IMG/VR virus record: IMGVR_UViG_3300005683_000068
Coordinates: 10,218 to 74,217 of that record
Length of the DNA: 64,000 bases
Strand: one strand, 5' to 3'
From: a virus
Lineage: Duplodnaviria > Caudoviricetes
Part shown: piece by piece, positions 3,436 to 53,994 of the stretch
Position numbering within the stretch: position 1 is the stretch's first letter
Layout of the letters: every line of letters begins with the position of its first letter
The notes under the pieces: generated by a model
Databases searched by the model: none
What the model was told of the DNA's origin: nothing
Seen by the model: the letters and a program-made list of their open reading frames with translations, nothing else
Program-made: the position numbers and the translations under genes

Positions 3436-5865
3436 CTAACGACGCATGGTAGTCGGCGGAGGCAGTTGCATACTGCCCCTAGGATTCACAAGTCCAATTG
3501 GACTATGTTTCACAAGTTCTTCTGCCCTAGCAGGATCAACGTGCATTGCTCCTAGCAATTGTCCATCGGGTGTTGTTTCAAAGAATTGTGTTGAATTTGC
3601 TTCCTCACGATATACAGCATTCCCATAAGCATCAGTGCCTACTTTAATCTGACCCTTTGGTGATTCTGCTTCTTTTACATCCTCTACCTCAAACTGGAGT
3701 GAAGGAGGCAAACTAGATGCCAACATCTCTGCAACCTCAACACCTGAGAAGGATGGTTTTTCCTTACCTTCAGAAAACTGGACACAGTTATCACTTGATT
3801 GATAGGAAGCAAGCAACCTATTCTTTAGTGTGGGTGGAATTTTGGCTGCATTGATTTTTGAAACAGCCTCATTTCTTGCCGTCTCATTACGGAGGTTTTC
3901 TTTCTCCTCCTCATATTGCTGAGCCTTTAGTTCAGCTTGCTTACGTTTTTCCCTCTCCTGCTGCAATTGTTCTTGCTCACGCAAGATTGCTTGTCTAACT
4001 CTAACCGGCAACGCGGCCAGGTCCTCTTCAGAGAATGGCATGGGAGCATCAGTGACATTTGCTTTGTTGTCTTCATCGTCAGGCTCCGCCTCTGCTTCAG
4101 CTTCCATTTCAGCCTTAATGCTAGAGTTAATAGCAGCAAGCAGAACATCAATACTGTGTTCATCATCAAAACAGAAATCACTAGGAAGAACAATACCTTT
4201 CTGGTTAAGACCAGCAAGCACAGCAGACAACTTGCTCTTGTCTGTTGCCTTAGGAGGCATGTCCGGATTGGTGTTCACATCCGGCTGCATTGTCTCAGGA
4301 GGTGTTGAGGATTCTGATTCGGCTGATTCCTCAGTATCCAAATCCTCAGCCTTCTTCTTCTTGGTCTGTTCATCCATTGGATTGTTGTCCTTTGGATCTT
4401 CCGCGTGCTGAGATTGCTTGTTCACTTTGCCTCCCATTTTCTTGTAAACGGATGTTACGACAGCCCAATACTTCCTGTTACCCTCGCCGCCGTATCTGTT
4501 GCCGATCACCTTCTTGGCTTTGGACCAGATTCCTTCGTCCTCTACCCAAGGGGCAGGATTACCAGTGGAACCAAATGGTTCCTTCATCATGTGCTGGCCA
4601 CCATGTTGTTTATGGAACATGGCTTCTTCACCTAGTTCATTATCTTCATCTGTCAGTCCAGCTTCAATCTTAGCTAGGACTTTATTGTGTTCTTGGACTG
4701 TGAGGTTGTCCCAATCAATACTTTCATCTTCCCCACTGGGATTGGTAACACCTGGCTTGTGAGCATCTACACTGAGGGAATTCTTATAGTGCTCATCAGG
4801 AGGCATGGTAGAAGGCGGTGTTACGTTATCCATATCCTCACCGTGTTGGGACGCTAAGGACCTCAAGTGGTTGTGAAGATCGGTATGTCCTTGACCTTCT
4901 TTAACCAGCTTGCCTCCATTGTAGTGATTCCAAGAGCCGTTGGAATAATGCTCTATCAAGCCATGCTTACCATGAGAAAAACTCCTCATGGTATCGGCTT
5001 TGCCCGTCCCCAATTGCTTAGAGGACATCTTAAATCCGTGCTTCTGAAGCAGCTTATGTCCAGTGTTACCTTCTTCATAGAACTGCTCAGAATCATCCAT
5101 ATCCTCACCGTGTTGGGAATCTTCCGCTGTATGGTAATGAGCATTTTTGCAAAGATGATCGCCAGTACAAGTAATGTTTCTGGCACTCTCACTATTGAAC
5201 TTACCATGCAATTTCCCACGGTAAGTTGTCTGTTCTTTAGAATATCGTTTTGGAATAATGCTGGAAAATGTTGCTGATTTGCCAGCGTGTTCCCCACTAT
5301 GGAACTTCACATGGAATGTTCCATAGTGATCTTTGTTAGCAACTGGTTTACCAACCTCATTGAATTGCTCAGCATCCAATGGTTCACATTCACCCTCAGT
5401 GAACTGCCAGCAATCCTCGCTCAGGGCAAGGGTTTCAATCTCGCCCTGGTGAGGATTACCCGGCAACGGAGTAAACGCGAAATGACGGATGACTGGTCCT
5501 TCATACACACCAGCCTTCTCACAGACATAGTGTGGACGGAACTCAGGACTGGTAAATCTTAGAGTACCAGCTTCCTTAGCTTTCAATACCGCTTCTGGAA
5601 CATCTTTTGCTTCCCAAGCGATAGCTCCATCCTCAATTGCTACACTAGTAATCCAGCCGGCTCCCTTTCCATCAGCAGAAGCAAACTGCTCAGTTTCATC
5701 ATCACTTGCATTGATAGGAGCGTGCTTCAAAAGCAATGGAATAGGGACACCGGCCTTGATTGCTTTGTTCGTTCCTTCAACAAAGGAACGCAATTTTTCC
5801 AAGGAGAGTCGATGCCCACGATAGACACCAGGGCCAAAAGCTGATTTTTGTTTAAGGATTGCCAT
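3436..5865 (-). CDS. Prohead protease / scaffold polyprotein (Mu gpI-like) with inserted modules
   Basis: N-terminal 'AGWI...RFTSPEF...GPVIRHFAFTPLP' protease-like domain; acidic coiled-coil C-terminus; 809 aa from ATG 5865. Confidence 0.7.
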   Translation of the reverse strand: MAILKQKSAFGPGVYRGHRLSLEKLRSFVEGTNKAIKAGVPIPLLLKHAPINASDDETEQFASADGKGAGWITSVAIEDGAIAWEAKDVPEAVLKAKEAGTLRFTSPEFRPHYVCEKAGVYEGPVIRHFAFTPLPGNPHQGEIETLALSEDCWQFTEGECEPLDAEQFNEVGKPVANKDHYGTFHVKFHSGEHAGKSATFSSIIPKRYSKEQTTYRGKLHGKFNSESARNITCTGDHLCKNAHYHTAEDSQHGEDMDDSEQFYEEGNTGHKLLQKHGFKMSSKQLGTGKADTMRSFSHGKHGLIEHYSNGSWNHYNGGKLVKEGQGHTDLHNHLRSLASQHGEDMDNVTPPSTMPPDEHYKNSLSVDAHKPGVTNPSGEDESIDWDNLTVQEHNKVLAKIEAGLTDEDNELGEEAMFHKQHGGQHMMKEPFGSTGNPAPWVEDEGIWSKAKKVIGNRYGGEGNRKYWAVVTSVYKKMGGKVNKQSQHAEDPKDNNPMDEQTKKKKAEDLDTEESAESESSTPPETMQPDVNTNPDMPPKATDKSKLSAVLAGLNQKGIVLPSDFCFDDEHSIDVLLAAINSSIKAEMEAEAEAEPDDEDNKANVTDAPMPFSEEDLAALPVRVRQAILREQEQLQQEREKRKQAELKAQQYEEEKENLRNETARNEAVSKINAAKIPPTLKNRLLASYQSSDNCVQFSEGKEKPSFSGVEVAEMLASSLPPSLQFEVEDVKEAESPKGQIKVGTDAYGNAVYREEANSTQFFETTPDGQLLGAMHVDPARAEELVKHSPIGLVNPRGSMQLPPPTTMRR
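4828..5118 (-). repeat. 24 nt identical direct repeat (ATCCATATCCTCACCGTGTTGGGA, encoding SQHGEDMD) at 4828-4851 and 5095-5118
   Basis: Read directly; period 267 nt = 89 codons, in frame. Confidence 0.9.
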
Positions 5866-11263: not shown

Positions 11264-12916
11264 TCAAACCCAACCACCCATAAACTCTTTGCCAAATGAG
11301 CGTTTGAATTGTCTCTCAGTGTTCTCATCTTCTTCATCACGAATTGTTTGTAATGGATCAAATGGCAATGTAATGCTGCCACCAGTGAAACCACCACACA
11401 CAATAGCAGCATAGGATGCCATATCTATCTGATCATTGGTCTCATCCTTCAATCCCATCCAACGCAACCATTCTGATTCAAGATCAAATCTCCATGTTCC
11501 TTCGTGCTTTGGTAAATAAACTTGTCCTGCTTCAAGCATATTAGTAAAGGGGGCGGCCCTCACCACCTTATCAACAATGCCGGATGAGATCATTTGAATC
11601 GGCATCTTGCGTTTGAGATCATCCACTACTGCTGGACCCATAGCTTTGTTTTCAACGTGGGTCATGCTTGGCTTCCAAATATAATGAATGTTCTCTATTG
11701 CATCTCTGATTGCTGTATAACCCACTCCCTGCAATCTAAGAACGTGTTTCGCTATTAGTGCTCTGAAATTACCAGAGATGTAATAATCCCAAACACCAAT
11801 AGCAGTGTGGCTAAGTGATTTGCCTCTGTGCTCACGTTCTATATCTTCAACACCACCAGCAGTATCCACTGTCACAAACCGCCTTGCTTCCTGCTCATTA
11901 AATGAAAGCAAAACCTCTGCTGTATGAAGAATGTTTCCGTCACCGTCATTACGTGAGATCAACAGATTTACCATTCGATCCTGCATCACATAATAACGCA
12001 ACCATTCTGGCTTAATCAAACCAGTTGGCATAATTGTCCAGTCGCCATTCATCAAGCGTTCTCTGATGACTGGCGAAAGATGCATCAGATTCCTGATATA
12101 ATCATCCGGATCAACAGCAGGATTGTCTCTAATTTTGGATGGCACAAATACACGTTTAGAGCCATCGTGGGTGCATTCAGTTTCATATATATCTCCAATG
12201 TTGCCAGTCTTTAGATCATTCTCAGCTTGCTTGGAGATGAATCTTGACTTAACCCAATCATGTCCTTTACCACCAGGGTTAGTAGCTGACCTCATTCGAT
12301 AAGGAGCATCAATGCTAGTCTTTTTACGAAGACGCGAGAACAGGAACAAATAATCCTCTTCAGTGAATTCTGTCAGCTCATCAAAGCCAATGAACTGATA
12401 TTCAGACGAACCATAACGATACTTGTCAAATTCACTAGAGATGTACCCAAATTGAAGTGTGGCACCAGATTTGAATGACCACATAAAATTGCTGCCATTC
12501 CATTTACATTCACCTCTAGCAGCAGCGGGAGCCAGCCATTCATGGGACCTAGGGATCAAACCACCGGCTAGGCGTAATCGCTGCAAATCTGTTCTAACAA
12601 TCAACGCCGAATAGCCAGGTACATGGGCATACTGTAATGCTGCTCGCAATAGACTATCACTCTTACCCCCACCAGCAGCACCACCAAACAACACCTCAAG
12701 ATTAGGTAGTTTTAGAAAAACATCTTGTTTATGCCAATGTGGATACTTACACCACTTGCTCACAGGATCCTTCGAGTATAATTCCAACTTTCTCAGATTC
12801 CCTAACAGCTTCGGCAACTGAGATTTCTCTACCGTCGATAATAAGTTTTTCTGCTCCGAGGACTTCAGCGAGTTGAAGTATTGATAATGTTCTAGACTGA
12901 GAATTTCCTTTGTCAT
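11264..12916 (-). CDS. terL: Terminase large subunit
   Basis: Walker A 'FGGAAGGGKS', Walker B 'IGFDELTEF', 'SATNPGG', nuclease 'TVDTAG' and 'DQIDMAS'. Confidence 0.92.
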   Translation of the reverse strand: MTKEILSLEHYQYFNSLKSSEQKNLLSTVEKSQLPKLLGNLRKLELYSKDPVSKWCKYPHWHKQDVFLKLPNLEVLFGGAAGGGKSDSLLRAALQYAHVPGYSALIVRTDLQRLRLAGGLIPRSHEWLAPAAARGECKWNGSNFMWSFKSGATLQFGYISSEFDKYRYGSSEYQFIGFDELTEFTEEDYLFLFSRLRKKTSIDAPYRMRSATNPGGKGHDWVKSRFISKQAENDLKTGNIGDIYETECTHDGSKRVFVPSKIRDNPAVDPDDYIRNLMHLSPVIRERLMNGDWTIMPTGLIKPEWLRYYVMQDRMVNLLISRNDGDGNILHTAEVLLSFNEQEARRFVTVDTAGGVEDIEREHRGKSLSHTAIGVWDYYISGNFRALIAKHVLRLQGVGYTAIRDAIENIHYIWKPSMTHVENKAMGPAVVDDLKRKMPIQMISSGIVDKVVRAAPFTNMLEAGQVYLPKHEGTWRFDLESEWLRWMGLKDETNDQIDMASYAAIVCGGFTGGSITLPFDPLQTIRDEEDENTERQFKRSFGKEFMGGWV

Positions 12917-13543: not shown

Positions 13544-13966
13544 CTAATCCTCCTTAGGGATTAAAGGGGTTAATGCCGAATCAGATCGGCGTGCTTTCAA
13601 CGTGAATTGTTCTTTAGGTAATTTGATACCTAATTTTTCAGCGAGTCCAATTCCATCCACAAAGGTATTTGTCTTATCCATAAAATCATGCCACTCTGAC
13701 TCTCTAACAAACGCCCTGGCTTGATTCCCGCTGGCAAATACCATTACTACATAGTAATCACAGTCCTTAGCCGCCTTCACGGCAGCCGTTGCTTGTTTCA
13801 TCATCTTGGCTATTTCAGAAACCTCTCTAGCATCATCCTTCTCTATACTCCCCGAAGTTTCTTTGCTGTGTATTGGATGGTCCTTGATTTTAGGACCTTT
13901 GAATTTTGGAGCAAGACGTAACTTAGTCTCGCGGCTGTTTAATTTTAATCTGCCCATGCTTAACAC
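13544..13966 (-). CDS. Conserved partner of the phage PAPS-reductase-like protein
   Basis: 'DYYVVMVF....ARAF...F.DG..LAEKLGI.LP' resembles proteins found beside such PP-loop genes. Confidence 0.55.
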   Translation of the reverse strand: MLSMGRLKLNSRETKLRLAPKFKGPKIKDHPIHSKETSGSIEKDDAREVSEIAKMMKQATAAVKAAKDCDYYVVMVFASGNQARAFVRESEWHDFMDKTNTFVDGIGLAEKLGIKLPKEQFTLKARRSDSALTPLIPKED

Positions 13967-14633
13967 CCCATTTAGCTCTCAACAACTCCGCACGTTGTAG
14001 CGGAAACCACTCTAGTATCTTTTTGTAGTCCTCAGGGTAATCAGTTCTAATAGGCTCAAGAAACCTATAGTCTATACCGTCGAAGCTACGACCAAACATC
14101 CTGTAATCATCTGGAACTGGAGTTTTGTTTTGTGTGAGTATATTAACCACATCCTGTTTTGTGGCTTGCCATATAGGGTAGATTCTATTCTGTATTCTCC
14201 AGTGTTTAATTCGCATTCTTCGCAAGACACTATCCCTAACTCTGATTCCTACTGCAACAACGGTATCTTGCGGTACTCCTGCTGTTATACATACTCCTTT
14301 TGCTACGTCTGTATATTCAAAGCGAGGAAGTTCCAAGTAATTTATTACTGGTATCCTATGTAAAGGTTGTGCTGTTCCTGTCCTCAACATCTGGTAAAAA
14401 TCAGGATGTACCGTAATATAAACATGCTGTTTGAAATGCTCTTCACAGTGTTTAATTGCCTTCCTAACAAATGACAATCCTGGAACTATTTCCATATAGA
14501 AAGGGATTACTTTGATCTTGTAGTGTCTCAATACCTCCCATAATGCCAATGAATCCTTACCACCAGAGAAAGATAACAATACCTGTTCCTGTTGTTTCAA
14601 GTATTCTACAATCTCTGATTCTGGAAGGTACAT
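13923..14633 (-). CDS. PAPS-reductase-family (PP-loop) protein
   Basis: 'VLLSFSGGKDS' PP-loop, 'VGIRVRDSVLRR', 'YPIWQATKQDV'. Confidence 0.8.
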   Translation of the reverse strand: MYLPESEIVEYLKQQEQVLLSFSGGKDSLALWEVLRHYKIKVIPFYMEIVPGLSFVRKAIKHCEEHFKQHVYITVHPDFYQMLRTGTAQPLHRIPVINYLELPRFEYTDVAKGVCITAGVPQDTVVAVGIRVRDSVLRRMRIKHWRIQNRIYPIWQATKQDVVNILTQNKTPVPDDYRMFGRSFDGIDYRFLEPIRTDYPEDYKKILEWFPLQRAELLRAKWGVKHGQIKIKQPRD

Positions 14634-43499: not shown

Positions 43500-45182
43500 T
43501 CACGAGTAATCATCCTCAATCACTCTGGTAGTGGTTTTGAGAATTGCTTCCAGTTCCTCCACTCGCTTACGAAGTTTGTTGTTCTCATTTTCTGAGTGCG
43601 ACTTCTGTGACAACTTACTTTGAACCCCCTCAATCTTGTTCAAGGCTTTTTGCATTTGGAAAACATTCCTACCGAACCAGAATGCGGCTTCTGAACATCC
43701 CCAGTTATAAAGGTCTTTGATTGCCGTCTCGGCATAGTGACACCGCTCGCGAAGCTCGGCAATCTCATTTCCAGCCCACGTCGCCAGCACACTGAGCGGA
43801 GCGTTTGAGCCTGGATTGGCTGAGGTATAGCAGGCTTCAAGTGCTTCGGTTGCGTGACGGATTTGCTCGTGGAGCTTGGCGTTCTCAGCTTCCAGTTCTG
43901 CATACGACTTCCACGGGCCGCCGGCACACATACGCTGCTTGATAAACCGCTTGCAATTTTCGAGCATTACTTCGGGGTCGCCGATGCAGCGAGCCGTCGT
44001 TTCCGGCAGCGGCACGACCGAGTAGAGCTTGCTGTCATCTTCCCAGCAGCGGTCATCGGCTTTCTGCTCCCAATGGGTGCGGATGGCGGTTTCTAATTCC
44101 TTCACTCGCATCTCGGCATAGTGACACCGCTTACGTGCCGCATCGAGGTCCATCTCTAGCTCGCAGATGGTCTTGTCAAGCCGTTTGTTTTCTTCCGTGA
44201 GTTCCTTCACACGGGCTTCGGCTGTCTGGGCTCGATTTATTGCCAGGAACGTATCGCGAGCTGTTTTCAAGGACGGGAGTTCGGGGGCACTGATCAAAGC
44301 GTAACAAGAGGGCCGTGAGTGTCCTCTACCCCGGTTTGGCTTCCAGATCGTCGTAGCCCGATATTCAAACACCGTCCCGTTGTCTCGGAGAATGCATTCC
44401 AAGACATGCGATCCTTCCGGCCACTTGTTGGCCTCGTCAATAGAACACCACGAATGAACTGCTTGTGATCGCTCTCGTTCGGCTTTGATTTCTTCGCACG
44501 CCGAATGAAGCTGGTCCTCTAGCTCCTTCACACGGGTGCCGAGATTTATTTCGCAACCTCTTGCAAGAGCTTCGGCGTCGTCCGCACGCTTCTCAGCAGC
44601 CTGAATTTCGTACGCTTGAGAAAGAAACTGGCAGCCTCCCTCTTTACAATTGGCAGCGAAGAACTTGTGGCGAGTCAGATCGCCGACCGCGAGCTTAGCG
44701 ATAAACGCCTCAAGCGGGCCAATCTGGTCCCAACCAGCGTCAATTGCTGCTTGAACAATACGGCCTAGGGAGACTTCTGTTTTCTCCAGTTGCTCTTGAA
44801 GAGACTTCTGTTTGGTCAGATACTCTCTCAGCCACGCCACCCTGGTTCCGAGAGAGTATTCCGCAGGCTCTTCGTATTCCCTTGGTCGCGACTCTTTCGC
44901 TACGTTAGCAAGGTCGCAGAGTTCATGTATGACGTTCTCTAACTTTTTCACATCGGCCGGGGTAGCGCCGGTTGCTTCGACCAGCGGGCCGACGAAGTTG
45001 GAAGCACGATTGTCAATCCGATAGGTACACGCCATGTCTCCATACAGGTCATTGCAGTTCCACCAACCCGCTCGCCGATTGCCGGGAAGATTTATACCGG
45101 GAACAGTTAAGTCGAACTCGTACCAGCCCACAGGGCAGGTTGCGTCAAGTTTCTCTCGTTTCATTGTAATTTTCACTTTCAT
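43500..45182 (-). CDS. Mosaic coiled-coil early protein (560 aa)
   Basis: Repeated RVKELE linkers and two copies of RCHYAE separating small domains. Confidence 0.65.
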   Translation of the reverse strand: MKVKITMKREKLDATCPVGWYEFDLTVPGINLPGNRRAGWWNCNDLYGDMACTYRIDNRASNFVGPLVEATGATPADVKKLENVIHELCDLANVAKESRPREYEEPAEYSLGTRVAWLREYLTKQKSLQEQLEKTEVSLGRIVQAAIDAGWDQIGPLEAFIAKLAVGDLTRHKFFAANCKEGGCQFLSQAYEIQAAEKRADDAEALARGCEINLGTRVKELEDQLHSACEEIKAERERSQAVHSWCSIDEANKWPEGSHVLECILRDNGTVFEYRATTIWKPNRGRGHSRPSCYALISAPELPSLKTARDTFLAINRAQTAEARVKELTEENKRLDKTICELEMDLDAARKRCHYAEMRVKELETAIRTHWEQKADDRCWEDDSKLYSVVPLPETTARCIGDPEVMLENCKRFIKQRMCAGGPWKSYAELEAENAKLHEQIRHATEALEACYTSANPGSNAPLSVLATWAGNEIAELRERCHYAETAIKDLYNWGCSEAAFWFGRNVFQMQKALNKIEGVQSKLSQKSHSENENNKLRKRVEELEAILKTTTRVIEDDYS

Positions 45183-45381
45183 TTAGAATATGATTACAAA
45201 CGACACATGTTATTTGCGACATAACCGCAAGTACGTCATCAGGTAATGGAGAAGGATTTCTTTCACCTAAAGCGATTAGTCTTGTAAACTCTCTAAGTTG
45301 CTGTAAGCCCTCTTTACCTTGTGAATCATACTTCAATACTTTTCGGTAGTCATCTAGTATTTCTTCAAGTGAAGGGATCAT
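45145..45381 (-). CDS. Hypothetical protein
   Basis: Clean small ORF. Confidence 0.45.
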   Translation of the reverse strand: MIPSLEEILDDYRKVLKYDSQGKEGLQQLREFTRLIALGERNPSPLPDDVLAVMSQITCVVCNHILNESENYNETRET

Positions 45382-45417
45382 AAAATCGCTTTAGTTCAAG
45401 GCGCATCGCATTGTCTA

Positions 45418-45828
45418 TCATTGATCCACATTGCCGATTTCGTCTTCGTCTCGGAAGTAAGCCTTGTCCGTTAGTCTGTCGAGCTTACGGCTAACTCCGG
45501 CAGAGATTCCTCTGATCTCTTTTATCTCCTGAGCCAACTCCAAAGAATGTTGTTGTAGCGACTTGTTCGTCTCCATCAAAACCGCTACGAGGTTAAGAAG
45601 CATCCGCACCTCCTCTTTGTCCATATCCCGAACGTTAGCCCTAAGGAGTTCGGGACGCTGACACAATAACGCTACGGATAAGCCTACCGGCAGCTTAACC
45701 TCCTCCACCAGCTCATTCCAGGCTCCTAGTTGGGAAGCGCATCCTGTACCTCCACAAACCATACAAGGTTCTTTGTGTTCAAGGAAAGGCTCATAGCCTA
45801 AACCGTTACACGCTTTGCATTCGTTCAT
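45418..45828 (-). CDS. Hypothetical protein with DnaJ-type CxxCxGxG zinc motif
   Basis: MNECKACNGLG...CMVCGGTG; start reassigned to ATG 45828. Confidence 0.65.
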   Translation of the reverse strand: MNECKACNGLGYEPFLEHKEPCMVCGGTGCASQLGAWNELVEEVKLPVGLSVALLCQRPELLRANVRDMDKEEVRMLLNLVAVLMETNKSLQQHSLELAQEIKEIRGISAGVSRKLDRLTDKAYFRDEDEIGNVDQ

Positions 45829-45901
45829 TTTCGGTCTCCGATTGGAAGGAAAGGAAACTACAGTAGGCTCCTCTAGTTCTATTATCTCCGAGCTAGAGGA
45901 C

Positions 45902-45959
45902 AGGAGTGCGGGTAGGAATCGAACCTGCCAGTGCTTCGTCGCCTTAAGGCTCCACACTC
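45902..45959 (-). ncRNA. tRNA-like minihelix (acceptor stem + T arm, no canonical D or anticodon arm)
   Basis: GAGTGTG/CGCACTC stem, GGTTCGATTCC T-loop, one GCC-TTAA-GGC hairpin. Confidence 0.55.
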
Positions 45960-46236
45960 ACCATGCACACTATGAACTGTTGCTTGTGGATCGTCATCCA
46001 CTTGCTGGAGGCTTTCCAGATTGACTAGATTAACATGCCGTTGAACATTCCACTTGATGTTTCAGCAAAACTAATCAGAGCCATCGCTCTAACCCTTACT
46101 GGACGGGCGTTATGATAAGTACACCTCCGATCAATCTTCTAATATGTAGTTATCTAACCCGACGGCATTGTGTTATTCTGTTGAAGTGGCAACAGGATAA
46201 CTATTTCTGGCAACCGTCCACCAGTCTTTATTCCTG
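45960..46236 (-). ncRNA. Candidate multi-helix structured ncRNA
   Basis: ORF-free 277 nt with at least 7 complementary pairs, including long-range and crossing ones. Confidence 0.5.
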
Positions 46237-46854
46237 CTAGCCTTTAACCCACAATTCCGGGCAATCAGACCATTCAGGAACAAGTAACGAACGCTTCCTT
46301 GTATATCCAAGAAGTAACTTCTTGATTGGTTGAACCAAGGAGTTGCTCATTGTAGAGATTTTGAAGTATTTACCGAAGCACCGTTGCATTTCTGCATATG
46401 CCTTGTCTCTTCCTTCATAAGTCAGCATCCTATCCAGGAATAAGGCGAAGTATTCCCTGTGTTGTTTTGTGTTGTCGATTGATACCTCAAAGAACCTACG
46501 GAACTTCTGGATGTTTCCGATGCAGACAACATTGCTGTACTCGCGTGCTGCATCCAAAGCATCAGAAGTATCCCCATGAATCTTCCCGGTATCGAAAACA
46601 ACCTGACGGTTCCACCAAGCACATTCGTATCGTGCCTCCCGTGGGAGATACAATTCCTTGGTCCTAGCCCATTGGATACTTTCAGTGTGCCCAGAGCCAA
46701 GACTGGAGAAATGGAACCAGGACCGGATACGTTTGCCCCAGTCATAAATTTTTCCGAGTCCCCATTGGAGTCGGGATTCAGTTGATCCGCCACCTTGGCT
46801 CGTCGGATCATCGTCAATGTGATACTGAACAGTGGAATGGAACGGCTCGCACAT
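46237..46854 (-). CDS. Hypothetical protein (205 aa)
   Basis: Long ORF with AAGGAG RBS; no motif recognised. Confidence 0.55.
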   Translation of the reverse strand: MCEPFHSTVQYHIDDDPTSQGGGSTESRLQWGLGKIYDWGKRIRSWFHFSSLGSGHTESIQWARTKELYLPREARYECAWWNRQVVFDTGKIHGDTSDALDAAREYSNVVCIGNIQKFRRFFEVSIDNTKQHREYFALFLDRMLTYEGRDKAYAEMQRCFGKYFKISTMSNSLVQPIKKLLLGYTRKRSLLVPEWSDCPELWVKG

Positions 46855-46894
46855 TGTCTAAGCTCCTTTCGCGAATTGAAACAAAAAACACAAT

Positions 46895-46968
46895 AGGGAC
46901 CGGTAGGGCTTGAACCTACAACCAAAGGATTATTAGTCCTCTGCTCTAACCAATTGAGCTACGGTCCC
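46895..46968 (-). tRNA. tRNA with AAU anticodon (nominally Ile), no encoded CCA
   Basis: Full cloverleaf GGGACCG...CGGTCCC, D-loop GG, anticodon arm GAGGA-CT[AAT]AA-TCCTT, T-loop TTCAAGC. Confidence 0.9.
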
Positions 46969-47015
46969 TAGAGGTCAGTCCAGTTCAACCGTGGCCAGCG
47001 GTATCATTTTCGGTT

Positions 47016-47255
47016 TCATTGCCATTTTTCCTTCTTGATGGGAAGACGCAAATCATCACAAATACAGGCAAGGATGTTACTCGCCTTCTCATAACTATCA
47101 TCTTTGTTGTCCAAGAACTCATGTGCTAATGCCAAGCACATATCATCCAGCAATTGATAGAGTTCCTTGGTAGCAACAGATTTGAGTTTGGAACCATAAG
47201 CTAGTTCCAAACCCTTGTGAAATGCAAAGGCTACTTGTTTGGTTGTGCAGTGCAT
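47016..47255 (-). CDS. Hypothetical protein
   Basis: MHCTTKQ...; start uncertain. Confidence 0.5.
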   Translation of the reverse strand: MHCTTKQVAFAFHKGLELAYGSKLKSVATKELYQLLDDMCLALAHEFLDNKDDSYEKASNILACICDDLRLPIKKEKWQ

Positions 47256-47419
47256 CCTGTATCTCCACATCGTAAGTCAGCCAATAATTCCTTAGCCATT
47301 TGGGCTATGCGATACTTCCGGTCCACTGTCCAATACGGATTCTCGCACAGTGCTATGATCTTTAGCGGCTTTTGTTGTGGAGACTCCTCTGTAGGGGTTC
47401 CAACGAAGTGGAGTGTCAT
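47231..47419 (-). CDS. Hypothetical protein (62 aa)
   Basis: AAAGGA RBS before MTLHFVG...; overlaps the 3' end of the upstream ORF. Confidence 0.4.
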   Translation of the reverse strand: MTLHFVGTPTEESPQQKPLKIIALCENPYWTVDRKYRIAQMAKELLADLRCGDTGCTAQPNK

Positions 47420-47780
47420 GTTCTTCCTTTGGTAAGAGAATAAGGGACTCACAACTGATCCTGGTCTTGTACAGTTTGCCGTTTAGGGTCACGACAACCT
47501 TGAGAGCGGCTCCATAGCCATTACCTTGATCGGACTGCTCACAAGCTGTTCCTTCTAAACCATGAAGTTCTGCACAATAATGATTGTTCCTGATTTTGAT
47601 AGGATCGCCTGGTTTAATCATCCAAAAACTCAATCCATTGAACTTCTTATAAACCTCCTTTGGTTTACCTTTGTAGGCATCCAATTCCAAGCAATCACAA
47701 TCGCCGCAGTGTGTACCATTAGCATCAGTAATGATATTTGCACTACGGCATTCTTTGCAACAGATGGTCCACTTCTTCAT
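47292..47780 (-). CDS. Zinc-ribbon + SH3-like hypothetical protein
   Basis: CKEC...CGDC then 'IKPGDPIKI...GLEGT'; AAGGAG RBS. Confidence 0.55.
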   Translation of the reverse strand: MKKWTICCKECRSANIITDANGTHCGDCDCLELDAYKGKPKEVYKKFNGLSFWMIKPGDPIKIRNNHYCAELHGLEGTACEQSDQGNGYGAALKVVVTLNGKLYKTRISCESLILLPKEEHDTPLRWNPYRGVSTTKAAKDHSTVRESVLDSGPEVSHSPNG

Positions 47781-47790
47781 TTGTAGCTCC

Positions 47791-48120
47791 TTAGAAAATA
47801 ACATCGCCTGGTTTCCAATCTCTATTCAACATGCCATCAAGTATGGCATGGACATCTTTTTTGGTAAGTCCTACCCACTTCTTATAATCTTTAAGGAAGG
47901 CTTGATTATGATAAGTGGGTCCAGTCCGAGCATCCTCAATGGCAAGGGAAATGTAAGACACACCAACAGCCAGTAATTGAATCTCAGTCTGCCCAAGATA
48001 TTTGTATGTCTTGGATTTGACCTTTGGACGAGCGAATTTCTTTCTGATCGACAAAGGTAATTCCAACAACAACCCAAGCAACTTGGGTTCGGTCATACAA
48101 GTTATCATTTTAGCTTCCAT
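47791..48120 (-). CDS. Hypothetical protein
   Basis: Clean ORF in the early operon. Confidence 0.5.
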   Translation of the reverse strand: MEAKMITCMTEPKLLGLLLELPLSIRKKFARPKVKSKTYKYLGQTEIQLLAVGVSYISLAIEDARTGPTYHNQAFLKDYKKWVGLTKKDVHAILDGMLNRDWKPGDVIF

Positions 48121-49175
48121 CCTTTCTCAGTTTTGAGAATGTAATCCTGGAAATACAGGCTCTTGAGGTGCTTCTTGCATTCAAGTCCACACTCCTGCTG
48201 TACCATTTCAGTAGTCACAACAGCTTTGTGTGATCCAGAGAGTTTAACCAAAGCAGCGTTGATCTTGCCCTGGTCACTATCAATCAAGTCTCCAAACTGA
48301 TCAAACAACACTCGTTTCTTCTTGGTTGGTTTTGTCTCTTTCTCTTTGGGTTTGTCCACTTGTGATAGCGGAACACCATCAATGAGTGGTTCCATCTTCC
48401 GATGCAGTTTCACAGCCTCTTTGAGAATACGAATTGTTACCATTGACTCATCAATGCCGTACCTATCCAATTCAAACTTGGTTGGGTCCTTACCAAGTAA
48501 TTTGATGTACTTGGGCAGCTTGCTGAAGATGATGGGTGAGACTTCAAGCTGTTTGGCCAAGTTGGCAAGACGGTCAGCCAATCCCATTTCTCCAGGACCT
48601 AAAGGGTCTTGTTTCTCCTCTTTCTTGGTGATCGGTTTTTCCAATTCCTTTTGAACTCCATTGCTACTCATAAAAGACTTGTAGAGATTGGTATAGGACC
48701 GCTGTTCCTTAGCAGCATGATCCCGTGCTGATTTGAGCAGTGCTTCATATTGCTTATTGGACAACTTGTCATAATGACCAACAAGATGACCAACTCGGAT
48801 ATGATGGTCAGCATTGTCCCGTGAGTACATCACAATGACAAAGTTACTCCATTCCTCTGTGCCATCACTGTATTTGATGAACCAGCGTGGTAAGGTGTGC
48901 TCACTGGGCTTCTTCATTCGCAAGTCAACAATGGTTTTAGTCTTGTCTGTAACCCATGTGAAATACCCATTGCGTTGTTCCTTGCGAAGTTTCTTCGCTG
49001 CCTTCTTAGCTTTGGCTTCTGCCTTCTTAGCTTTGGCTTCTGCCTTCAAGTCCTTCTCAGTAACCTCAACAGCATGAGCAGAGTCTCCGATTGCTTGCAG
49101 TTTGGGTACATGATCTTTGGGGACCGGATCCACTGGGAACACCTCGGCAAGCGTCGGCTTGGTTTTCTTTGTCAT
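48105..49175 (-). CDS. Lys-rich early protein with C-terminal winged-helix module
   Basis: AEAKAKK repeats; C-terminus similar to that of the 35315-36082 protein. Confidence 0.65.
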   Translation of the reverse strand: MTKKTKPTLAEVFPVDPVPKDHVPKLQAIGDSAHAVEVTEKDLKAEAKAKKAEAKAKKAAKKLRKEQRNGYFTWVTDKTKTIVDLRMKKPSEHTLPRWFIKYSDGTEEWSNFVIVMYSRDNADHHIRVGHLVGHYDKLSNKQYEALLKSARDHAAKEQRSYTNLYKSFMSSNGVQKELEKPITKKEEKQDPLGPGEMGLADRLANLAKQLEVSPIIFSKLPKYIKLLGKDPTKFELDRYGIDESMVTIRILKEAVKLHRKMEPLIDGVPLSQVDKPKEKETKPTKKKRVLFDQFGDLIDSDQGKINAALVKLSGSHKAVVTTEMVQQECGLECKKHLKSLYFQDYILKTEKGWKLK

Positions 49176-49192
49176 GGTACTGATCCTCTTGG

Positions 49193-49408
49193 TTAGTGAC
49201 AAACCTTGCGAGTAATTTCGTCAGCAATTGCATTGCGACAAGCAACGCAAAACGGTGAGTCGATTGTCTCACCCATACGAGACATAACATGGTTTGGTCT
49301 TGGCAGGAGTGCTTGGCACTCTAAACAAGTCCCTTTATAAATGGCTTCTTGTGCCAGTCGCTTGTTTTGTTCCCTTGCACGTTGCAAGTATTCTTCAGCA
49401 ATGCTCAT
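49193..49408 (-). CDS. TraR/DksA-like C4 zinc-finger protein
   Basis: Helical 'AEEYLQRARE' followed by CLEC...CVAC. Confidence 0.55.
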   Translation of the reverse strand: MSIAEEYLQRAREQNKRLAQEAIYKGTCLECQALLPRPNHVMSRMGETIDSPFCVACRNAIADEITRKVCH

Positions 49409-49482
49409 TTTCTATCCCTTTGAGTAGAACAACCAATGCCCGTCAAAGTGACGGGCAGCCTCTTCTCTGTTCCATTCCAAAA

Positions 49483-49614
49483 ACCCGGACGATGCTCAGC
49501 AAAAGCCTGCTCGTTCGTGATTGTGTTTGACTTGTTGATCCCCAAGAGACATGCTCTCTTTCACAACAAGTCAGGAACACTAGGCGTCAAAAGGCTACAC
49601 CTCACGCCGGGTCT
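49483..49614 (-). ncRNA. Candidate structured RNA in an ORF-free gap
   Basis: 10 bp TGACTTGTTG/CAACAAGTCA stem extended by GTGTT/AACAC; GGCGT/ACGCC hairpin whose loop AGCCT can pair with downstream AGGCT. Confidence 0.45.
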
Positions 49615-49659
49615 GGCACTGACTATTCAAAGAAGATGCTCCTTGCAAACGGCACTTGA

Positions 49660-49911
49660 TTACAACGGATATACTGCCCGCTCAAGTCCCTCCGCATGGG
49701 CAGTTGTGAGAAGGGCAAGCACATCAGCATCAAACTGATTGCGATGCGGGGTCCAGTTTTTGATGACGTGCTTGAGCAAGTCCAAGTCGTCAAGCTGCTC
49801 GTCCTGTGAACGCTCACATGCCCCGGTAACAGTCATGTGGACGTCCAAGGCAATCTGCAACACAGATCGTCCTTTGGCTTGATCCACCCACCAATCTGGT
49901 CTGTAACTCAT
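49660..49911 (-). CDS. Hypothetical protein
   Basis: GGAG RBS; clean ORF. Confidence 0.55.
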   Translation of the reverse strand: MSYRPDWWVDQAKGRSVLQIALDVHMTVTGACERSQDEQLDDLDLLKHVIKNWTPHRNQFDADVLALLTTAHAEGLERAVYPL

Positions 49912-49925
49912 TTTTCAAATCTCCC

Positions 49926-50783
49926 CTATTGAACTTGGAATACCCCAGCCAATTGCGTGCGGACCCACTGAATCGCAGCAGTTTTGTTCCACACTTCCTT
50001 ACACACCAAGACGTTCTTGTCCTGGGAAATGTAAGGGACGATTCGATCAAAGCCTGTCACAACACCCAAGCCTGTAACGGGCGGTGAGTTGCTTACGCAA
50101 TACGTTCCGAAGAACATAGTGCGATAACACCAGCCGCTCACACCATTGATCAACGTGCTAACATCAAGTGGATCACCGGCACACTTGTAACGTACAGCAG
50201 CCCCAAAAGACCTGCCATTGTGAAATGCCCTGAGGCAATGAGTAGCGGCCCACAATTCAACTCTGTAGCCGGCCCTTTCAAGCAACTCAGTAAGCAGCAC
50301 TGCCGCCGCTCCACGCCACAAAATTTTATCATGGTTCACGAAGGCGGATGTGGAAATATCTGTAATGATCGTTACACTAACTGGGCCTGGACGTGTTTCT
50401 CTGTAAGAGTCTTCCAAGTAAGCCTGTCCGCGTAGCAAGCGATCGATGTTGAGTTCGTCGCCTCGATCTTCACTCCATCGTCTTTGACGTTTGATCGCTT
50501 TGGGTTGTGGCAGTTTCTCATCCCGCAATTCGTTCATCATGGACTCATAAATCTTGAGTCCATTTTCCCAAGCCTCACCAAGTGCTTGGGATACATCATT
50601 CCATGTGTTGAAACGACGGCCAATGAAACCTTCACGCTGAATAACACGAGGCTCCCAAGCCTGATAAGTCGATGAGCAGCCTTTGTGTTTCAGCACATTA
50701 GCCAGCACGTCCGTCGATTGTTCATTCTGCGAGTCAAAGCGGTAGAACTCAGTGTTGATGTCCGGGAGATATTCAAAGTACAT
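49926..50783 (-). CDS. VWA/CobT-like partner of the MoxR ATPase
   Basis: 'GDELNIDRLLRG' and 'DISTSAFV' MIDAS-like motif; follows the AAA+ gene. Confidence 0.6.
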   Translation of the reverse strand: MYFEYLPDINTEFYRFDSQNEQSTDVLANVLKHKGCSSTYQAWEPRVIQREGFIGRRFNTWNDVSQALGEAWENGLKIYESMMNELRDEKLPQPKAIKRQRRWSEDRGDELNIDRLLRGQAYLEDSYRETRPGPVSVTIITDISTSAFVNHDKILWRGAAAVLLTELLERAGYRVELWAATHCLRAFHNGRSFGAAVRYKCAGDPLDVSTLINGVSGWCYRTMFFGTYCVSNSPPVTGLGVVTGFDRIVPYISQDKNVLVCKEVWNKTAAIQWVRTQLAGVFQVQ

Positions 50784-50819
50784 GATCTAGCTCCTTTTGG
50801 TTGAAATGAGAAAACAGAC

Positions 50820-52190
50820 CTAGCAGCCACTCTTGACCTTGCGAACCTCGTCCTCCCGCCAACCAGCAAACAGCATCTTCTCAACGTAGTCCATGTCCTT
50901 GCCATGCTGAGTCCAGTTGAACGCCCTCTTGATGAATCGCGTTCCGATAGTCCGCTCCACGCGATTCTTGTACAAGTTATCGCGATAGGAGTGCAGCTTG
51001 TTGACCCCTTCTTCCCAGCCAGGGCACAAAGCGAGTTCCAGCCCCTTGTCATAGTCCATTGCGATTTGGACAAAGCGGTCGATAAACGCACCGTCAAGTT
51101 GATTCCGTCCGCAGTATTGACGGTCAGAGCCATTGCCCCAAGTGTTTGCCGCAGCCATCGCATAGAAGTCCTTGTGCCTCTTGGCAATAGGCTTCTTGGG
51201 TCGATCAATCGGCAACTCGCCATCTTCCAAGCCACCATTGAGACTCAGCAGCACATTGGGATCGGCGGCATCTACTTCGTCCCATAGAAACAATCCACCG
51301 CCCTCCCACAAGTCAACGCAAAGCGTTGATTGGTAATGATGTGTCCCCTTGGTGATGTTTGGACTGACACGACCAAAAATTTTGCCCTCAGTGACCCCAC
51401 CGCTGAGACTCATCATCCCACAAGGAACACCAAGTACACGGGCAGCTTGTTTAGCCAAATATGTCTTGCCGCATCCCTTGGGGCCGACTAGCATCACATT
51501 GTCTCCAACCCTCAAATGGAACAGGACTTGCTCCATAATGGGATGCGTACGCTCCTCAAACACCTCGTCCTTCTTGCCGGGTTCCTTGATGACAAGTTCA
51601 ACCCGCCGAGCCTCATCCAAGTGCTTGATCTTGTTGTTGAGAGCAACCACAGTTGCTTCCAGTTCATCCAACTTGGACTGCAAAGCCTTGTTGGACGCAT
51701 CCCTGTCACTGTCCCCTTTCGGCTCCTTGCTGTCATCACCAAACTCCAGTTCGTAATTCTGGATCAGGTGTTTGATGACAGCAACTTTGCCAGCCGGATC
51801 AAACCGCCACTTCTGTTTTTCAGGTTCCCAAACACCACCAGCAGCGGATAGCGCTGCACGATGTTCGTAAGTGTTACCAGTAACATAAGCCACGCCGATG
51901 TCTTTCGAGTAGGCCACAAACAAGGGCTTCTGTTGTTGTTGCCGTGCAGTCGCCATCGGGTTGTCCTTGTTGTACTCCTTGTTGATCAACTTCCAGAGAT
52001 ACTTCTTGTGCCCACGACGTTCCAGGACCCCACGAGCTGTCAGCAGTTTAAGCACACTGCGATACTGCTCTCGCTGCGGATTGGACCAATCCAAACCCAG
52101 AGCGGTGAAAACCTCTTCGGTTGATCGGAAGCAGTATGTGTTCTGTTCCAAGTATTCGCAAGCCTTAATTGCAAAGTCACGGCGGTTCAT
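50820..52190 (-). CDS. MoxR/CobS-like AAA+ ATPase with N-terminal extra domains
   Basis: 'VGPKGCGKT', 'LWDEVDAAD', 'AANTWGNG', 'NQLDGAFIDRF'; possible internal start at MATARQ. Confidence 0.88.
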   Translation of the reverse strand: MNRRDFAIKACEYLEQNTYCFRSTEEVFTALGLDWSNPQREQYRSVLKLLTARGVLERRGHKKYLWKLINKEYNKDNPMATARQQQQKPLFVAYSKDIGVAYVTGNTYEHRAALSAAGGVWEPEKQKWRFDPAGKVAVIKHLIQNYELEFGDDSKEPKGDSDRDASNKALQSKLDELEATVVALNNKIKHLDEARRVELVIKEPGKKDEVFEERTHPIMEQVLFHLRVGDNVMLVGPKGCGKTYLAKQAARVLGVPCGMMSLSGGVTEGKIFGRVSPNITKGTHHYQSTLCVDLWEGGGLFLWDEVDAADPNVLLSLNGGLEDGELPIDRPKKPIAKRHKDFYAMAAANTWGNGSDRQYCGRNQLDGAFIDRFVQIAMDYDKGLELALCPGWEEGVNKLHSYRDNLYKNRVERTIGTRFIKRAFNWTQHGKDMDYVEKMLFAGWREDEVRKVKSGC

Positions 52191-52220
52191 CTTGTCATCC
52201 TTTTGTTAAGCGTTGAAATC

Positions 52221-52245
52221 AAAAATGACCCCAAGTTTGGGGCCA
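52221..52245 (-). terminator. Rho-independent terminator-like hairpin
   Basis: GGCCCCAA-AC-TTGGGGTC followed by ATTTTTG on the minus strand. Confidence 0.6.
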
Positions 52246-52271
52246 GCCTCTTCTCTGTCCCGAATGTTCAT

Positions 52272-52481
52272 CTAGTGCGGCCCACCAGCATCCCGTTTGT
52301 TGCTGGGGGTTTCAAACTCACAGCCTTCTGGAAGTCCAAAGTGCTCAGACTTCAAAGTCCACCCTCCCTTGCCACCCCTTTCAAACAGCATGGACTCTTC
52401 CAACCCCCGATGGTAAATCAGCATCCAATCATCATCTTCACTGAAACTAACTTCGCATGATTTGCAAATGATGAATTTCAT
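52272..52481 (-). CDS. Small early protein
   Basis: GGGAG RBS; CxxC. Confidence 0.55.
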   Translation of the reverse strand: MKFIICKSCEVSFSEDDDWMLIYHRGLEESMLFERGGKGGWTLKSEHFGLPEGCEFETPSNKRDAGGPH

Positions 52482-52543
52482 AACGGACTCCCTTTTGAAA
52501 CATGGCTTGAATCGTCAGCACCCAAGTAGCCAACTTGGAATGT

Positions 52544-52877
52544 ATGCTGTGCTTTTGTTTTGGGGCGGCGGGTTGCGGGTTGACTAAAACACTTTCAAAA
52601 TCTGTTCAGGGCTGTCCAATTGGACATACTCATACTGAGGAAGACCAATACATAACCAGGAATAGCTATCGCCAAGATTTGGCACAAACTGTACCAGTTG
52701 CGGTTCAGTATCAGTCCACCCAACCAATCCGAACTTGCCGCGTAGCTTTTTGACCATCTTCTTGGTGAAGGTCTTTTGATCGGCAAACGGCTGATCAAGA
52801 ACGATTGTCTTGTTGAGGTTCAACTTTTTCATGTTTCATTCCTTTTGTAAAACCGCCCCAAAACAAAAGCACAGCAT
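52544..52877. repeat. 25 bp perfect inverted repeat (ATGCTGTGCTTTTGTTTTGGGGCGG) at 52544-52568 and 52853-52877
   Basis: Read directly; encloses 284 bp containing one whole ORF. Confidence 0.92.
52584..52832 (-). CDS. First early gene, 82 aa hypothetical
   Basis: AAAGGA RBS; lies between the inverted repeats. Confidence 0.7.
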   Translation of the reverse strand: MKKLNLNKTIVLDQPFADQKTFTKKMVKKLRGKFGLVGWTDTEPQLVQFVPNLGDSYSWLCIGLPQYEYVQLDSPEQILKVF

Positions 52878-53340
52878 TTCATCTCTGTTGTTTCAAATTG
52901 TGATGCAATGGGGCATTGCGTGTACGCTTCACAGCGTTCAAAGAATCATATTCCGTGTATGGTCTTCACCGTCCGGCTTTCGTCTAACTCACTCCCCATG
53001 CCACACAGCACTAGCGGTACTTGTTTCCCAAAAGGTACTTGTTTCCCAGCGTGCCCTTTAAGATCGCGTCATACGCTTCACAGCGTTTCATTGCGATCCT
53101 GCATCCGCTGTCTGCCGCTTAGCTTGCGGTCTTACTTCTGCGGTGGATCGGGAGGGTGTGAGCATCAAGACTTGATTCTCGCCCCATTGCTTGCAGCCTT
53201 CAATCCGCTGCCGATACACTTGCGGTTCCCTTTGCCCCCTGTCCTTGTGCTGTCATCACGACGCTGGACCTGCGGGACGTGGTCGCCTCGACCAAGTGAT
53301 TGTCGCATCTCGTTGCGACTGACGAACTGGATTGCGAATG
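52878..53340 (-). ncRNA. Long structured 5' leader of the early transcript
   Basis: No credible ORF; two identical ACGCT-GTGA-AGCGT hairpins, a 15 bp direct repeat and several short stems. Confidence 0.5.
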
Positions 53341-53350
53341 AACTTCGTTC

Positions 53351-53379
53351 ATTTTAGACACCGTTACATACGTTGTCAA
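53351..53379 (-). promoter_or_regulatory. Consensus sigma70 early promoter
   Basis: TTGACA (53379-53374), 17 bp, TAAAAT (53356-53351); an AATGAAC-n3-GTTCATT dyad overlaps the -10/+1 region. Confidence 0.85.
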
Positions 53380-53447
53380 GTACGTAAACGTTAGAAATGT
53401 TGCGTGTTGTTTGTACAGTAGTTCTCAATCTGCACCTGTTTTGTAGC

Positions 53448-53475
53448 AATTTGCCGTGAAACACCCGGCAAAATT
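53448..53475. terminator. Hairpin at the end of the tail module
   Basis: AATTTGCCG / CGGCAAAATT; U-tract poor. Confidence 0.35.
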
Positions 53476-53496
53476 AAGAACTCTTTAAGAAGTGTT

Positions 53497-53994
53497 CTAT
53501 GGATATTGGAACACTTTGTCTGCCGGTCTGTCACCAGACAACGATAAATAAACGTCCTCTAGTCTCGTCTTTGGAACTGTGCGAGTGTATTTACCAGCGG
53601 CATTCTTTTTCCAATAAGCTGCAATGATCTTGCCATAGTTACCACTGCCATTGTTTTGAACACTCTCGATCACCAGCCGATTCGCTCCATTGATTAGCAA
53701 AGACATATTCAAAGCCACAGTCGGATCAAACAAGGCAGGGGTAATTGGAATGTTTGAATCTGCACCACCAAGAGTAATCGTGTACAGCAAAATAGAGGAT
53801 GGGGTGAGTAAAGAGACTCCACGGGGCTCTACAAAAATCCTGCCAGTGTAAGCGTCCTGATTGTTGTCGATGGTTCCTATTGAAGTCTCATTCAGATAGA
53901 CCTCAAAATTATCATCCTTAATTGCATTGCCATTATAAATGACAATGGCGAACAACTCGTCTGGTTGCTTCCTAGTGAACGGAGCCCAAATCAT
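53497..53994 (-). CDS. Hypothetical virion-associated beta-rich protein
   Basis: Start reassigned to MIWAP...; last gene of the module. Confidence 0.55.
   Translation of the reverse strand: MIWAPFTRKQPDELFAIVIYNGNAIKDDNFEVYLNETSIGTIDNNQDAYTGRIFVEPRGVSLLTPSSILLYTITLGGADSNIPITPALFDPTVALNMSLLINGANRLVIESVQNNGSGNYGKIIAAYWKKNAAGKYTRTVPKTRLEDVYLSLSGDRPADKVFQYP

Follow-up and report, generated by a model that had tools for sequence, protein, structure and literature searches.

A phage isoleucine tRNA gene with the anticodon AAU on a tRNA-Ile2-like body

Cellular genomes contain almost no transfer RNAs in which position 34 is an unmodified adenosine, and why such tRNAs should be so rare is debated (PMC11066159; bioRxiv 10.64898/2026.05.15.725136). 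A gene for an isoleucine tRNA with the anticodon AAU, found in the DNA of a tailed phage, raises the question of which kind of tRNA it arose from, and of which isoleucine codons, if any, its product would read. The gene considered here lies in a stretch of 64,000 nucleotides (hereafter the window), which corresponds to bases 10218-74217 of a 74,217-bp IMG/VR record that CheckV rates as 100% complete. A first-pass annotation of the window had described its body as resembling that of bacterial tRNA-Ile2 (the ileX/ileY type, in which the anticodon CAU carries the lysidine made by TilS and reads AUA), and had proposed that a change of C34 to A gave the phage a TilS-independent reader of AUU and AUA codons.

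The tRNA gene and its genomic setting

The gene occupies positions 46968-46895 on the minus strand, a strand that the first-pass annotation had left unstated, and is 74 nucleotides long. It matches the Rfam tRNA family (RF00005) across the full model, positions 1-71, with a score of 71.3 bits against a gathering threshold of 29 (E = 1.4e-13), and is called by ARAGORN as tRNA-Ile(aat) at 46894-46969. From 5' to 3' the predicted RNA consists of the acceptor strand GGGACCG, the bases UA, the D-arm GCUC-AAUUGGUUA-GAGC, a single A, the anticodon arm GAGGA-CUAAUAA-UCCUU, a variable loop of 5 nt (UGGUU), the T-arm GUAGG-UUCAAGC-CCUAC, the acceptor strand CGGUCCC, and a final U; these elements correspond to a class I cloverleaf with stems of 7, 4, 5 and 5 base pairs. 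The anticodon lies at 46932-46934 on the minus strand (A34 at 46934, a T on the plus strand, A35 at 46933 and U36 at 46932) within the loop C32 U33 A34 A35 U36 A37 A38, and the acceptor 3' end, at 46895-46898 on the same strand, is formed by C70, C71, C72 and the discriminator U73 (46895), with no CCA encoded. Pair 4:69 is A:U (46965/46899). The loop CU-AAU-AA, the A:U pair at 4:69 and U73 had all been read correctly in the first-pass annotation.

All 21 stem pairs of the cloverleaf are formed. Within the alignment of the tRNA family, 99% of the cells that make up stem positions are paired, and 10 of the 21 pairs have changed on both sides, a level of covariation that was reached in none of 500 shuffles. 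Comparison with the tRNA of a sister phage contig (L003) reveals four differences in the anticodon stem and an insertion at the acceptor 3' end, with 21 of 21 standard pairs in the window tRNA and one mismatch in that of L003. Because all of the pairs are intact and the changes among them are compensatory, the cloverleaf is evidence that the fold is still being selected, which is a statement about structure and no proof of charging. The cloverleaf has a calculated energy of -26.0 kcal/mol, comparable to the values for related tRNAs and for a genuine bacterial tRNA-Ile2. The minimum-free-energy structure, a non-cloverleaf fold at -29.3 kcal/mol, proved uninformative, as a genuine Paracoccus tRNA behaves in the same way. 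An eighth acceptor pair formed by positions -1 and 73 was also considered, given A-1:U73 in the window and U-1:A73 in L003 to L005, and was dropped on account of the C-1/A73 combination in a further relative (L132).

This tRNA is the only one encoded in the complete 74-kb genome, which has a GC content of 44% and, in the window, carries nearly all of its genes on the minus strand. The gene content is that of a tailed phage, and includes a large terminase, a Mu-F-like head protein, a family A DNA polymerase, a UDG-exonuclease and a gp32-like single-strand binding protein, as well as RecA, a sliding clamp and its loader, an SNF2 helicase and a CobS-like ATPase. The DNA of the phage was found in bioreactor and activated-sludge metagenomes; no close cultured relative was found, and a near-identity DNA search of a phage collection returned no relatives. 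The large terminase (window 11264-12916, minus strand) has as its nearest cultured relatives those of psiM2 and psiM100, viruses of Methanobacterium and Methanothermobacter, with 33-45% identity over parts of the protein, and this methanogen-virus-like affinity contrasts with the bacterial-looking tRNA and replication genes. An origin of the tRNA gene as an attachment site for phage integration is unlikely, given that the tRNA is complete and that the sole match to an integrase family is weak, falls below threshold and lies inside a protein of 1100 amino acids in the virion block.

The tRNA gene sits in a gap of 161 nt between genes for proteins of 84 and 205 amino acids, on the same strand as both. 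The upstream gene, taken from the list of open reading frames (47016-47270, minus strand), has a single homologue (P0010), located on a contig (L320) that differs in its downstream content and is without the tRNA. The downstream gene (46237-46854, minus strand) starts 40 nt past the tRNA and is preceded by the Shine-Dalgarno sequence AAAGGAG, and its homologues in uncultured phage contigs (P0002-P0008) serve to locate, by synteny, the place of the tRNA in sister phages. Proteins of this 205-amino-acid family, which is represented in contigs L003-L009 and L133-L135 as well as in the window, share an invariant N-terminus (M-C-E-P-x-H-S) and the motifs HFSxLGSGHTES and GYTRKRxLLVPEWAD, and in four loci the gene lies directly downstream of a tRNA with the anticodon CAU or AAU. 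A role of the protein in tRNA modification was considered and set aside: the protein belongs to no Pfam or PHROG family, its AlphaFold model has a pLDDT of 67, and Foldseek returned no PDB match at E <= 0.001. The gene for this protein is also present, with the tRNA absent, in contigs L133-L135.

Several further features of this neighbourhood may be recorded. Between the genes for the 205-amino-acid protein and a 179-amino-acid protein lies a tract of about 280 nt (window 45958-46236) that holds no open reading frame and, in a permissive Rfam scan, matched no family. Odd tRNA-like genes are found in sister phage contigs (L005:5895-5971, L006:1695-1774 and L009:1023-1102); one of these, called 'tRNA-???' by ARAGORN with a four-base anticodon (ggca), lies directly upstream of a homologue of the 205-amino-acid protein, and the other two, both 80 nt long, were called as 'tRNA-Val(gac)', their anticodon falling at position 33. 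A more distant phage (G001, the same contig as L002; IMGVR_UViG_3300005683_000005; 60 kb, 55% GC) is without the tRNA and was rejected as an informant on the position of the gene, as it has only a repeat protein of 560 amino acids in common with the window phage. The two copies of that protein (window 43500-45182 and G001 3570-5305) are 75-86% identical in segments whose order is scrambled, a pattern suggestive of a repeat or domain protein that has been shuffled and passed between otherwise unrelated phages.

Descent from tRNA-Ile2

The most direct evidence on the origin of the gene comes from sister phages. In three phage contigs (L003, L004 and L005) a tRNA gene is located just upstream of the homologue of the 205-amino-acid protein, and in all three its anticodon is CAT; in L003, where that homologue has 65% protein identity, the tRNA is identical to the window tRNA at 66 of 74 positions. 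A fourth member of the tRNA family, from metagenome contig L132, also has the anticodon CAT. Exact patterns of the whole window tRNA and of its 5' half found no match in IMG/VR; the one contig recovered for the family from metagenomes was L132. When position 34 was left free, a pattern of the D-arm and loop run across 185,579 species genomes returned CAT in 120 of the 120 matches listed, nearly all of them in Rhodobacterales, and a pattern of the exact anticodon arm run across IMG/VR returned C34 in all 118 matches listed. The best 20 matches in a sample of 301 Pseudomonadota genomes were all CAU tRNAs with 59-64 of 74 bases identical, and 11 of these 20 possess the exact anticodon arm of the window gene except for C34. 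Thus, none of the 258 comparable tRNAs listed (140 bacterial and 118 viral) has A34, which is the sole difference in the anticodon arm between the window gene and many bacterial and phage tRNA-Ile2 genes. Contigs from two sludge sequencing runs that align to the gene likewise read C34 (28 in run X3 and 14 in run X4), and a 445-nt contig from these runs is about 92% identical to the window over 46765-46968, the tRNA included.

The remainder of the molecule points in the same direction. The best match in Escherichia coli is the tRNA-Ile gene beside mug, which we take to be ileX. In a Paracoccus genome, where three kinds of CAU tRNA are found, the Ile2-type tRNA is distinguished from the elongator tRNA-Met and the initiators by A15:U48, G27.U43, C4-G69, C5-G68 and U44, and also has the variable loop UGGUU; the window tRNA has A15:U48, G27.U43 and UGGUU in common with it. 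Overall identity to the Paracoccus tRNAs separates the window tRNA clearly from tRNA-Ile(GAU) (53 of 74 bases) and only narrowly separates the Ile2-type tRNA (58) from the elongator tRNA-Met (57). Since the sister phages and the tallied tRNAs carry CAU, the window gene is, as judged by comparison of sequences, a descendant of tRNA-Ile2 with a single C34 to A change in its anticodon. The Ile2-like body proposed in the first-pass annotation is upheld by the E. coli match and by the Pseudomonadota CAU tRNAs (59-64 of 74).

A second difference concerns the end of the acceptor stem. In the four CAU relatives (L003-L005 and L132) the 3' end of the gene reads CGGTCC-T-A, which yields a G1.U72 wobble pair followed by A73, an arrangement that is also present in Rhodobacterales tRNA-Ile2 genes. 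The window gene reads CGGTCCC-T-A at this point: the one-base insertion (CC to CCC) creates the pair G1-C72 and displaces the former U72 to position 73, and U73 is due to that insertion. On this alignment U73 is a derived state, and constitutes a second change specific to the window gene beside A34. The A4:U69 pair, for its part, is common to the CAU-bearing sister tRNAs and is thus not special to the window gene.

Taken against bacterial and phage tRNA-Ile2 as a known system, the window tRNA is alike in its D-arm, its G27.U43 pair, its UGGUU variable loop and its T-arm, in the identity of 62-64 of 74 bases to proteobacterial genes, in an anticodon arm that is the same save for base 34, and in its placement at the position of the CAU tRNAs of sister phages. 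It is unlike them in that A34 would leave it no substrate for TilS and without an expected ability to read AUA, in having U73 rather than A73 and A4:U69 rather than the C4:G69 used by TilS and IleRS in E. coli, and in the lack of an encoded CCA.

Codon usage, charging and decoding

Among the 1144 isoleucine codons of the phage, ATT accounts for 54%, ATC for 26% and ATA for 20%. These proportions vary along the genome: the virion genes use 59% ATT, 22% ATC and 19% ATA, and the early block around the tRNA (window 43500-53500) uses 45%, 47% and 8%. Virion and replication genes taken together show 19-26% ATA and 51-59% ATT, as opposed to 8% ATA in the early block. A change of this kind between early and later genes is characteristic of phages equipped with a tRNA of their own. 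In the relatives that carry a CAU tRNA, for which the samples are small, ATT makes up 31-37% and ATA 22-30% of isoleucine codons.

The first-pass annotation had envisaged an AT-rich phage in a host of higher GC content, and that picture is plausible in view of the 44% GC of the phage and of the nearest cellular tRNAs, which are proteobacterial tRNA-Ile2 genes. Both the signature A15:U48 in the D-arm and, in the sister tRNAs, the G1.U72 pair match tRNA-Ile2 genes of Rhodobacterales, whose sampled loci have 62% GC and use 18% ATT, 78% ATC and 4% ATA among isoleucine codons, a contrast that serves only as an illustration. A GC-rich host of the Rhodobacterales type, biased to ATC and infected by a phage richer in AT, would fit these observations, and is offered only as a lead; equally close tRNA-Ile2 genes (64 of 74 bases identical) occur in other Pseudomonadota, and no host is named on this basis.

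From the descent of the gene, its one-base difference, its covarying cloverleaf and the codon usage of the phage, we infer a course of processing, charging, modification and decoding to which we would give an even chance of being correct. The gene encodes a genuine, structurally maintained phage tRNA, derived from a phage-borne copy of tRNA-Ile2, in which A34 would remain unmodified and read AUU independently of TilS, with AUA reading given up. Its transcript would be cut out of an early or middle operon RNA, CCA would be added by the host enzyme, and the host IleRS would attach isoleucine by way of A35, U36, A37 and A38, probably inefficiently since both A34 and U73 are poor determinants for that enzyme. 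If A34 stays unmodified, then the tRNA should pair with AUU in Watson-Crick fashion, read AUC only weakly and leave AUA unread, so that the isoleucine codon most used by the phage would be supplemented without the need for host TilS, and the AUA-reading function of the sister phages would be relinquished.

The only direct data on the behavior of a CUAAUAA loop in a bacterium come from engineered A34 tRNAs in E. coli (Schmitt et al. 2024, PMC11066159; Raval et al. 2026, a preprint). Those tRNAs possess the identical loop, and differ from the window tRNA in being artificial: their bodies were taken from tRNA-Tyr of M. jannaschii or from E. coli tRNAs, and they were either overexpressed or served by a different synthetase. 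No inosine was detected in the tRNA with that loop, which read AUU at 4.5%, AUC at 0.43% and AUG at 0.27%, with AUA below detection; AUU was therefore read some ten times better than AUC (PMC11066159). In the same study TadA was found to deaminate ANG anticodons only, and unmodified A34 did not read codons ending in A (PMC11066159). The engineered A34 tRNAs were translationally active in E. coli, where Ile-tRNA(AAU) was tolerated or mildly beneficial (bioRxiv 10.64898/2026.05.15.725136). The phage genome itself has no match to the deaminase families PF00383 or PF14437, and neither TilS nor a CCA-adding enzyme was found in it; a weak PP-loop (ATP_bind_3) match, considered as a candidate TilS, belongs to a protein of the PAPS-reductase type (window 13923-14633, minus strand). 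Of the two codons named in the first-pass annotation, then, AUU is in keeping with codon usage (54%, and 59% in virion genes), and AUA is not supported, the loop being left undeaminated in E. coli and the phage bringing no deaminase.

With respect to charging, the anticodon-loop determinants of IleRS (A35, U36, A37, which is the t6A site, and A38) are all present in the window tRNA. Those at position 34 (G34 or lysidine-34, and I34 in eukaryotes) and at position 73 (A73) are absent, being replaced by A34 and U73, and the minor E. coli determinants C4-G69 and C29-G41 are likewise absent. The E. coli identity set includes the discriminator as a strong isoleucine determinant (PMC9976931); isoleucylation in yeast is 16-fold higher with I34, and according to modelling A34 loses contacts made by G34 (PMC11685878). 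The doubt over charging that had been raised from atypical identity elements is well placed. The pairs C4-G69 and C5-G68 are reportedly, from work of Ikeuchi et al. in 2005, the determinants of E. coli TilS. The window tRNA has A4-U69 and C5-G68, and so lacks C4-G69 of that set. Further considerations weigh against the reading of the gene as a functional AUU decoder: ATA still makes up 20% of isoleucine codons, which an A34 tRNA would leave unserved, such that the change could be recent and non-adaptive; other members of this group do without the tRNA; and the rules established in E. coli may not transfer to the host of this phage.

One alternative is that the gene is an impaired or decaying accessory, in which the changes from C34 to A and from A73 to U73 are recent and neutral or harmful, and the RNA folds and is charged poorly or not at all while host tRNAs suffice. 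We regard this as unlikely, though deserving of serious attention. Both of the window-specific changes fall on strong isoleucine determinants, the anticodon and the discriminator (PMC9976931; PMC11685878), and A34 occurs in none of the 118 viral and 140 bacterial tRNAs listed with the same anticodon arm or D-arm. The tRNA is also dispensable in this group, being lacking in L133-L135, where the gene for the 205-amino-acid protein is kept, and in the distant phage G001, and the persistence of ATA at a fifth of isoleucine codons is what would be expected of usage tuned to an AUA reader. Opposed to decay are the perfect cloverleaf (21 of 21 pairs, 71.3 bits), in which every stem position that differs from L003 has a compensating change, an ATT share above that of the CAU-carrying relatives, the recurrence of AAU tRNAs in many phage lineages, in some cases with conservation across contigs, and the fact that an engineered Ile-tRNA(AAU) works in E. 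coli.

A further alternative holds that the TadA of the host, or some other deaminase, converts A34 to inosine, so that a single phage tRNA would read AUU, AUC and AUA without TilS. Such a modification would explain the retention of 20% ATA after loss of the CAU reader, and as a determinant for IleRS inosine at this position far surpasses A34 (PMC11685878). Bases 32, 33, 37 and 38 of the loop are those of tRNA-Arg(ACG), which has the loop CUACGAA in Paracoccus; A-to-I conversion has been described for A34 tRNAs from two-fold degenerate boxes in E. coli (bioRxiv 10.64898/2026.05.15.725136); and a passage of PMC11066159 cites bacteria that deaminate extra A34 tRNAs, Oenococcus oeni among them. 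However, the TadA of E. coli made no change to a loop of this very sequence, CUAAUAA, and acted on ANG anticodons only (PMC11066159), the window loop has A35 and U36 in place of C35 and G36 of the TadA-type sequence U33-A34-C35-G36, and the phage genome holds no match to PF00383 or PF14437. Inosine at position 34 would also risk nothing new, yet it has never been seen on bacterial isoleucine tRNAs. We consider inosine formation improbable for these reasons; if it did occur, a virus of bacteria would possess an equivalent of eukaryotic tRNA-Ile(IAU), and this would be the first tRNA-Ile of any bacterial system to carry inosine naturally.

A non-decoding or defensive role, in which the altered anticodon and acceptor end would allow the tRNA to escape, or to act as a decoy for, a host nuclease or toxin that targets tRNA, is very improbable. 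It has been proposed that changes in the anticodon loops of phage tRNAs allow them to avoid anticodon nucleases of the host (PMC10264068), and positions 34 and 72/73 are typical sites of nuclease or identity contacts; that source, however, holds no case in which an isoleucine tRNA is targeted, a change at base 34 alters the codon that is read and hence is no silent escape mutation, and neither a defence nor an anti-defence gene was recognised next to the tRNA. Nothing in the analysis speaks for the escape from an anticodon nuclease that had been suggested in the first-pass annotation.

An assembly or sequencing artefact, by which position 46934 would in truth hold C (G on the plus strand) and the extra C of the CCC run would be a homopolymer error, is conceivable in that CAU tRNAs aligning to the gene are abundant in sludge runs and could give rise to a chimeric assembly, and in that the CC/CCC difference falls in a short homopolymer. 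It has a very small probability, as short-read platforms are not prone to errors in runs of three bases and as a Logan contig of 12,158 nt, built by an independent assembler from run X1 at a depth of about 32, shows 0 differences from the record over 45073-49500, the gene included, an agreement that confirms the assembly and, given that X1 may be the source run of the record itself, is not independent evidence.

AAU isoleucine tRNAs in other phages

The survey of phage tRNAs that the first-pass annotation had called for was carried out in IMG/VR with a pattern of CUAAUAA and the T-arm, and yielded at least 29 AAU tRNAs confirmed by ARAGORN, a few of which are eukaryote-type tRNAs of giant viruses, with the rest distributed over about 14 phage lineages. 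The view that AAU isoleucine tRNAs are almost never encoded thus holds for bacteria and fails for phage contigs, where they recur. The phage examples (including L203/L207/L244, L223/L259, L249 and L137) share with the window tRNA the loop CUAAUAA, a bacterial-type structure and, in many cases, an Ile2-like body; they come from unrelated phages and represent separate origins, and most have A73, with several of those listed combining an Ile2-like body with A73 and an encoded CCA. The one coliphage that was inspected, G7C, carries no tRNA gene. The window tRNA differs from them in its insertion-derived U73 and in that its own sister phages are still CAU. A 317-kb jumbo phage (L137; IMGVR_UViG_3300042009_000026) encodes, within a cluster of 10 tRNAs, a tRNA-Ile(AAU) with C1-G72 and U73 (L137:10219-10292, minus strand), which is the only other AAU tRNA with U73 among the matches listed; U73 was rejected as a common feature of AAU tRNAs, since most of the others have A73.

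The AAU tRNAs of giant viruses (L155, L181, L227 and L248) are unlike the window tRNA in having a eukaryote-like body. Eukaryotic tRNA-Ile(AAU), which becomes IAU through ADAT2/ADAT3, has the same genomic anticodon, and would be matched in its reading of three codons if the window tRNA were deaminated; it is unlike the window tRNA in that the latter has a bacterial body, that the phage encodes no ADAT-type enzyme, and that TadA, the bacterial enzyme, acts specifically on loops of the ACG type (PMC11066159). The literature that was searched yielded no discussion of a natural phage tRNA-Ile(AAU). On present comparisons the window tRNA is a member of a recurrent and unstudied class of phage A34 isoleucine tRNAs, unusual and not unique.

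Phages may be regarded as natural test cases for A34 tRNAs, and the gene described here offers a particularly clean one: because its sisters keep CAU at the same position, the proposed switch from AUA to AUU, and from dependence on TilS to independence of it, would correspond to one base on a shared body, and was accompanied by a change of the discriminator. Should the tRNA turn out to be poorly charged, it would instead record how the accessory tRNAs of phages decay.
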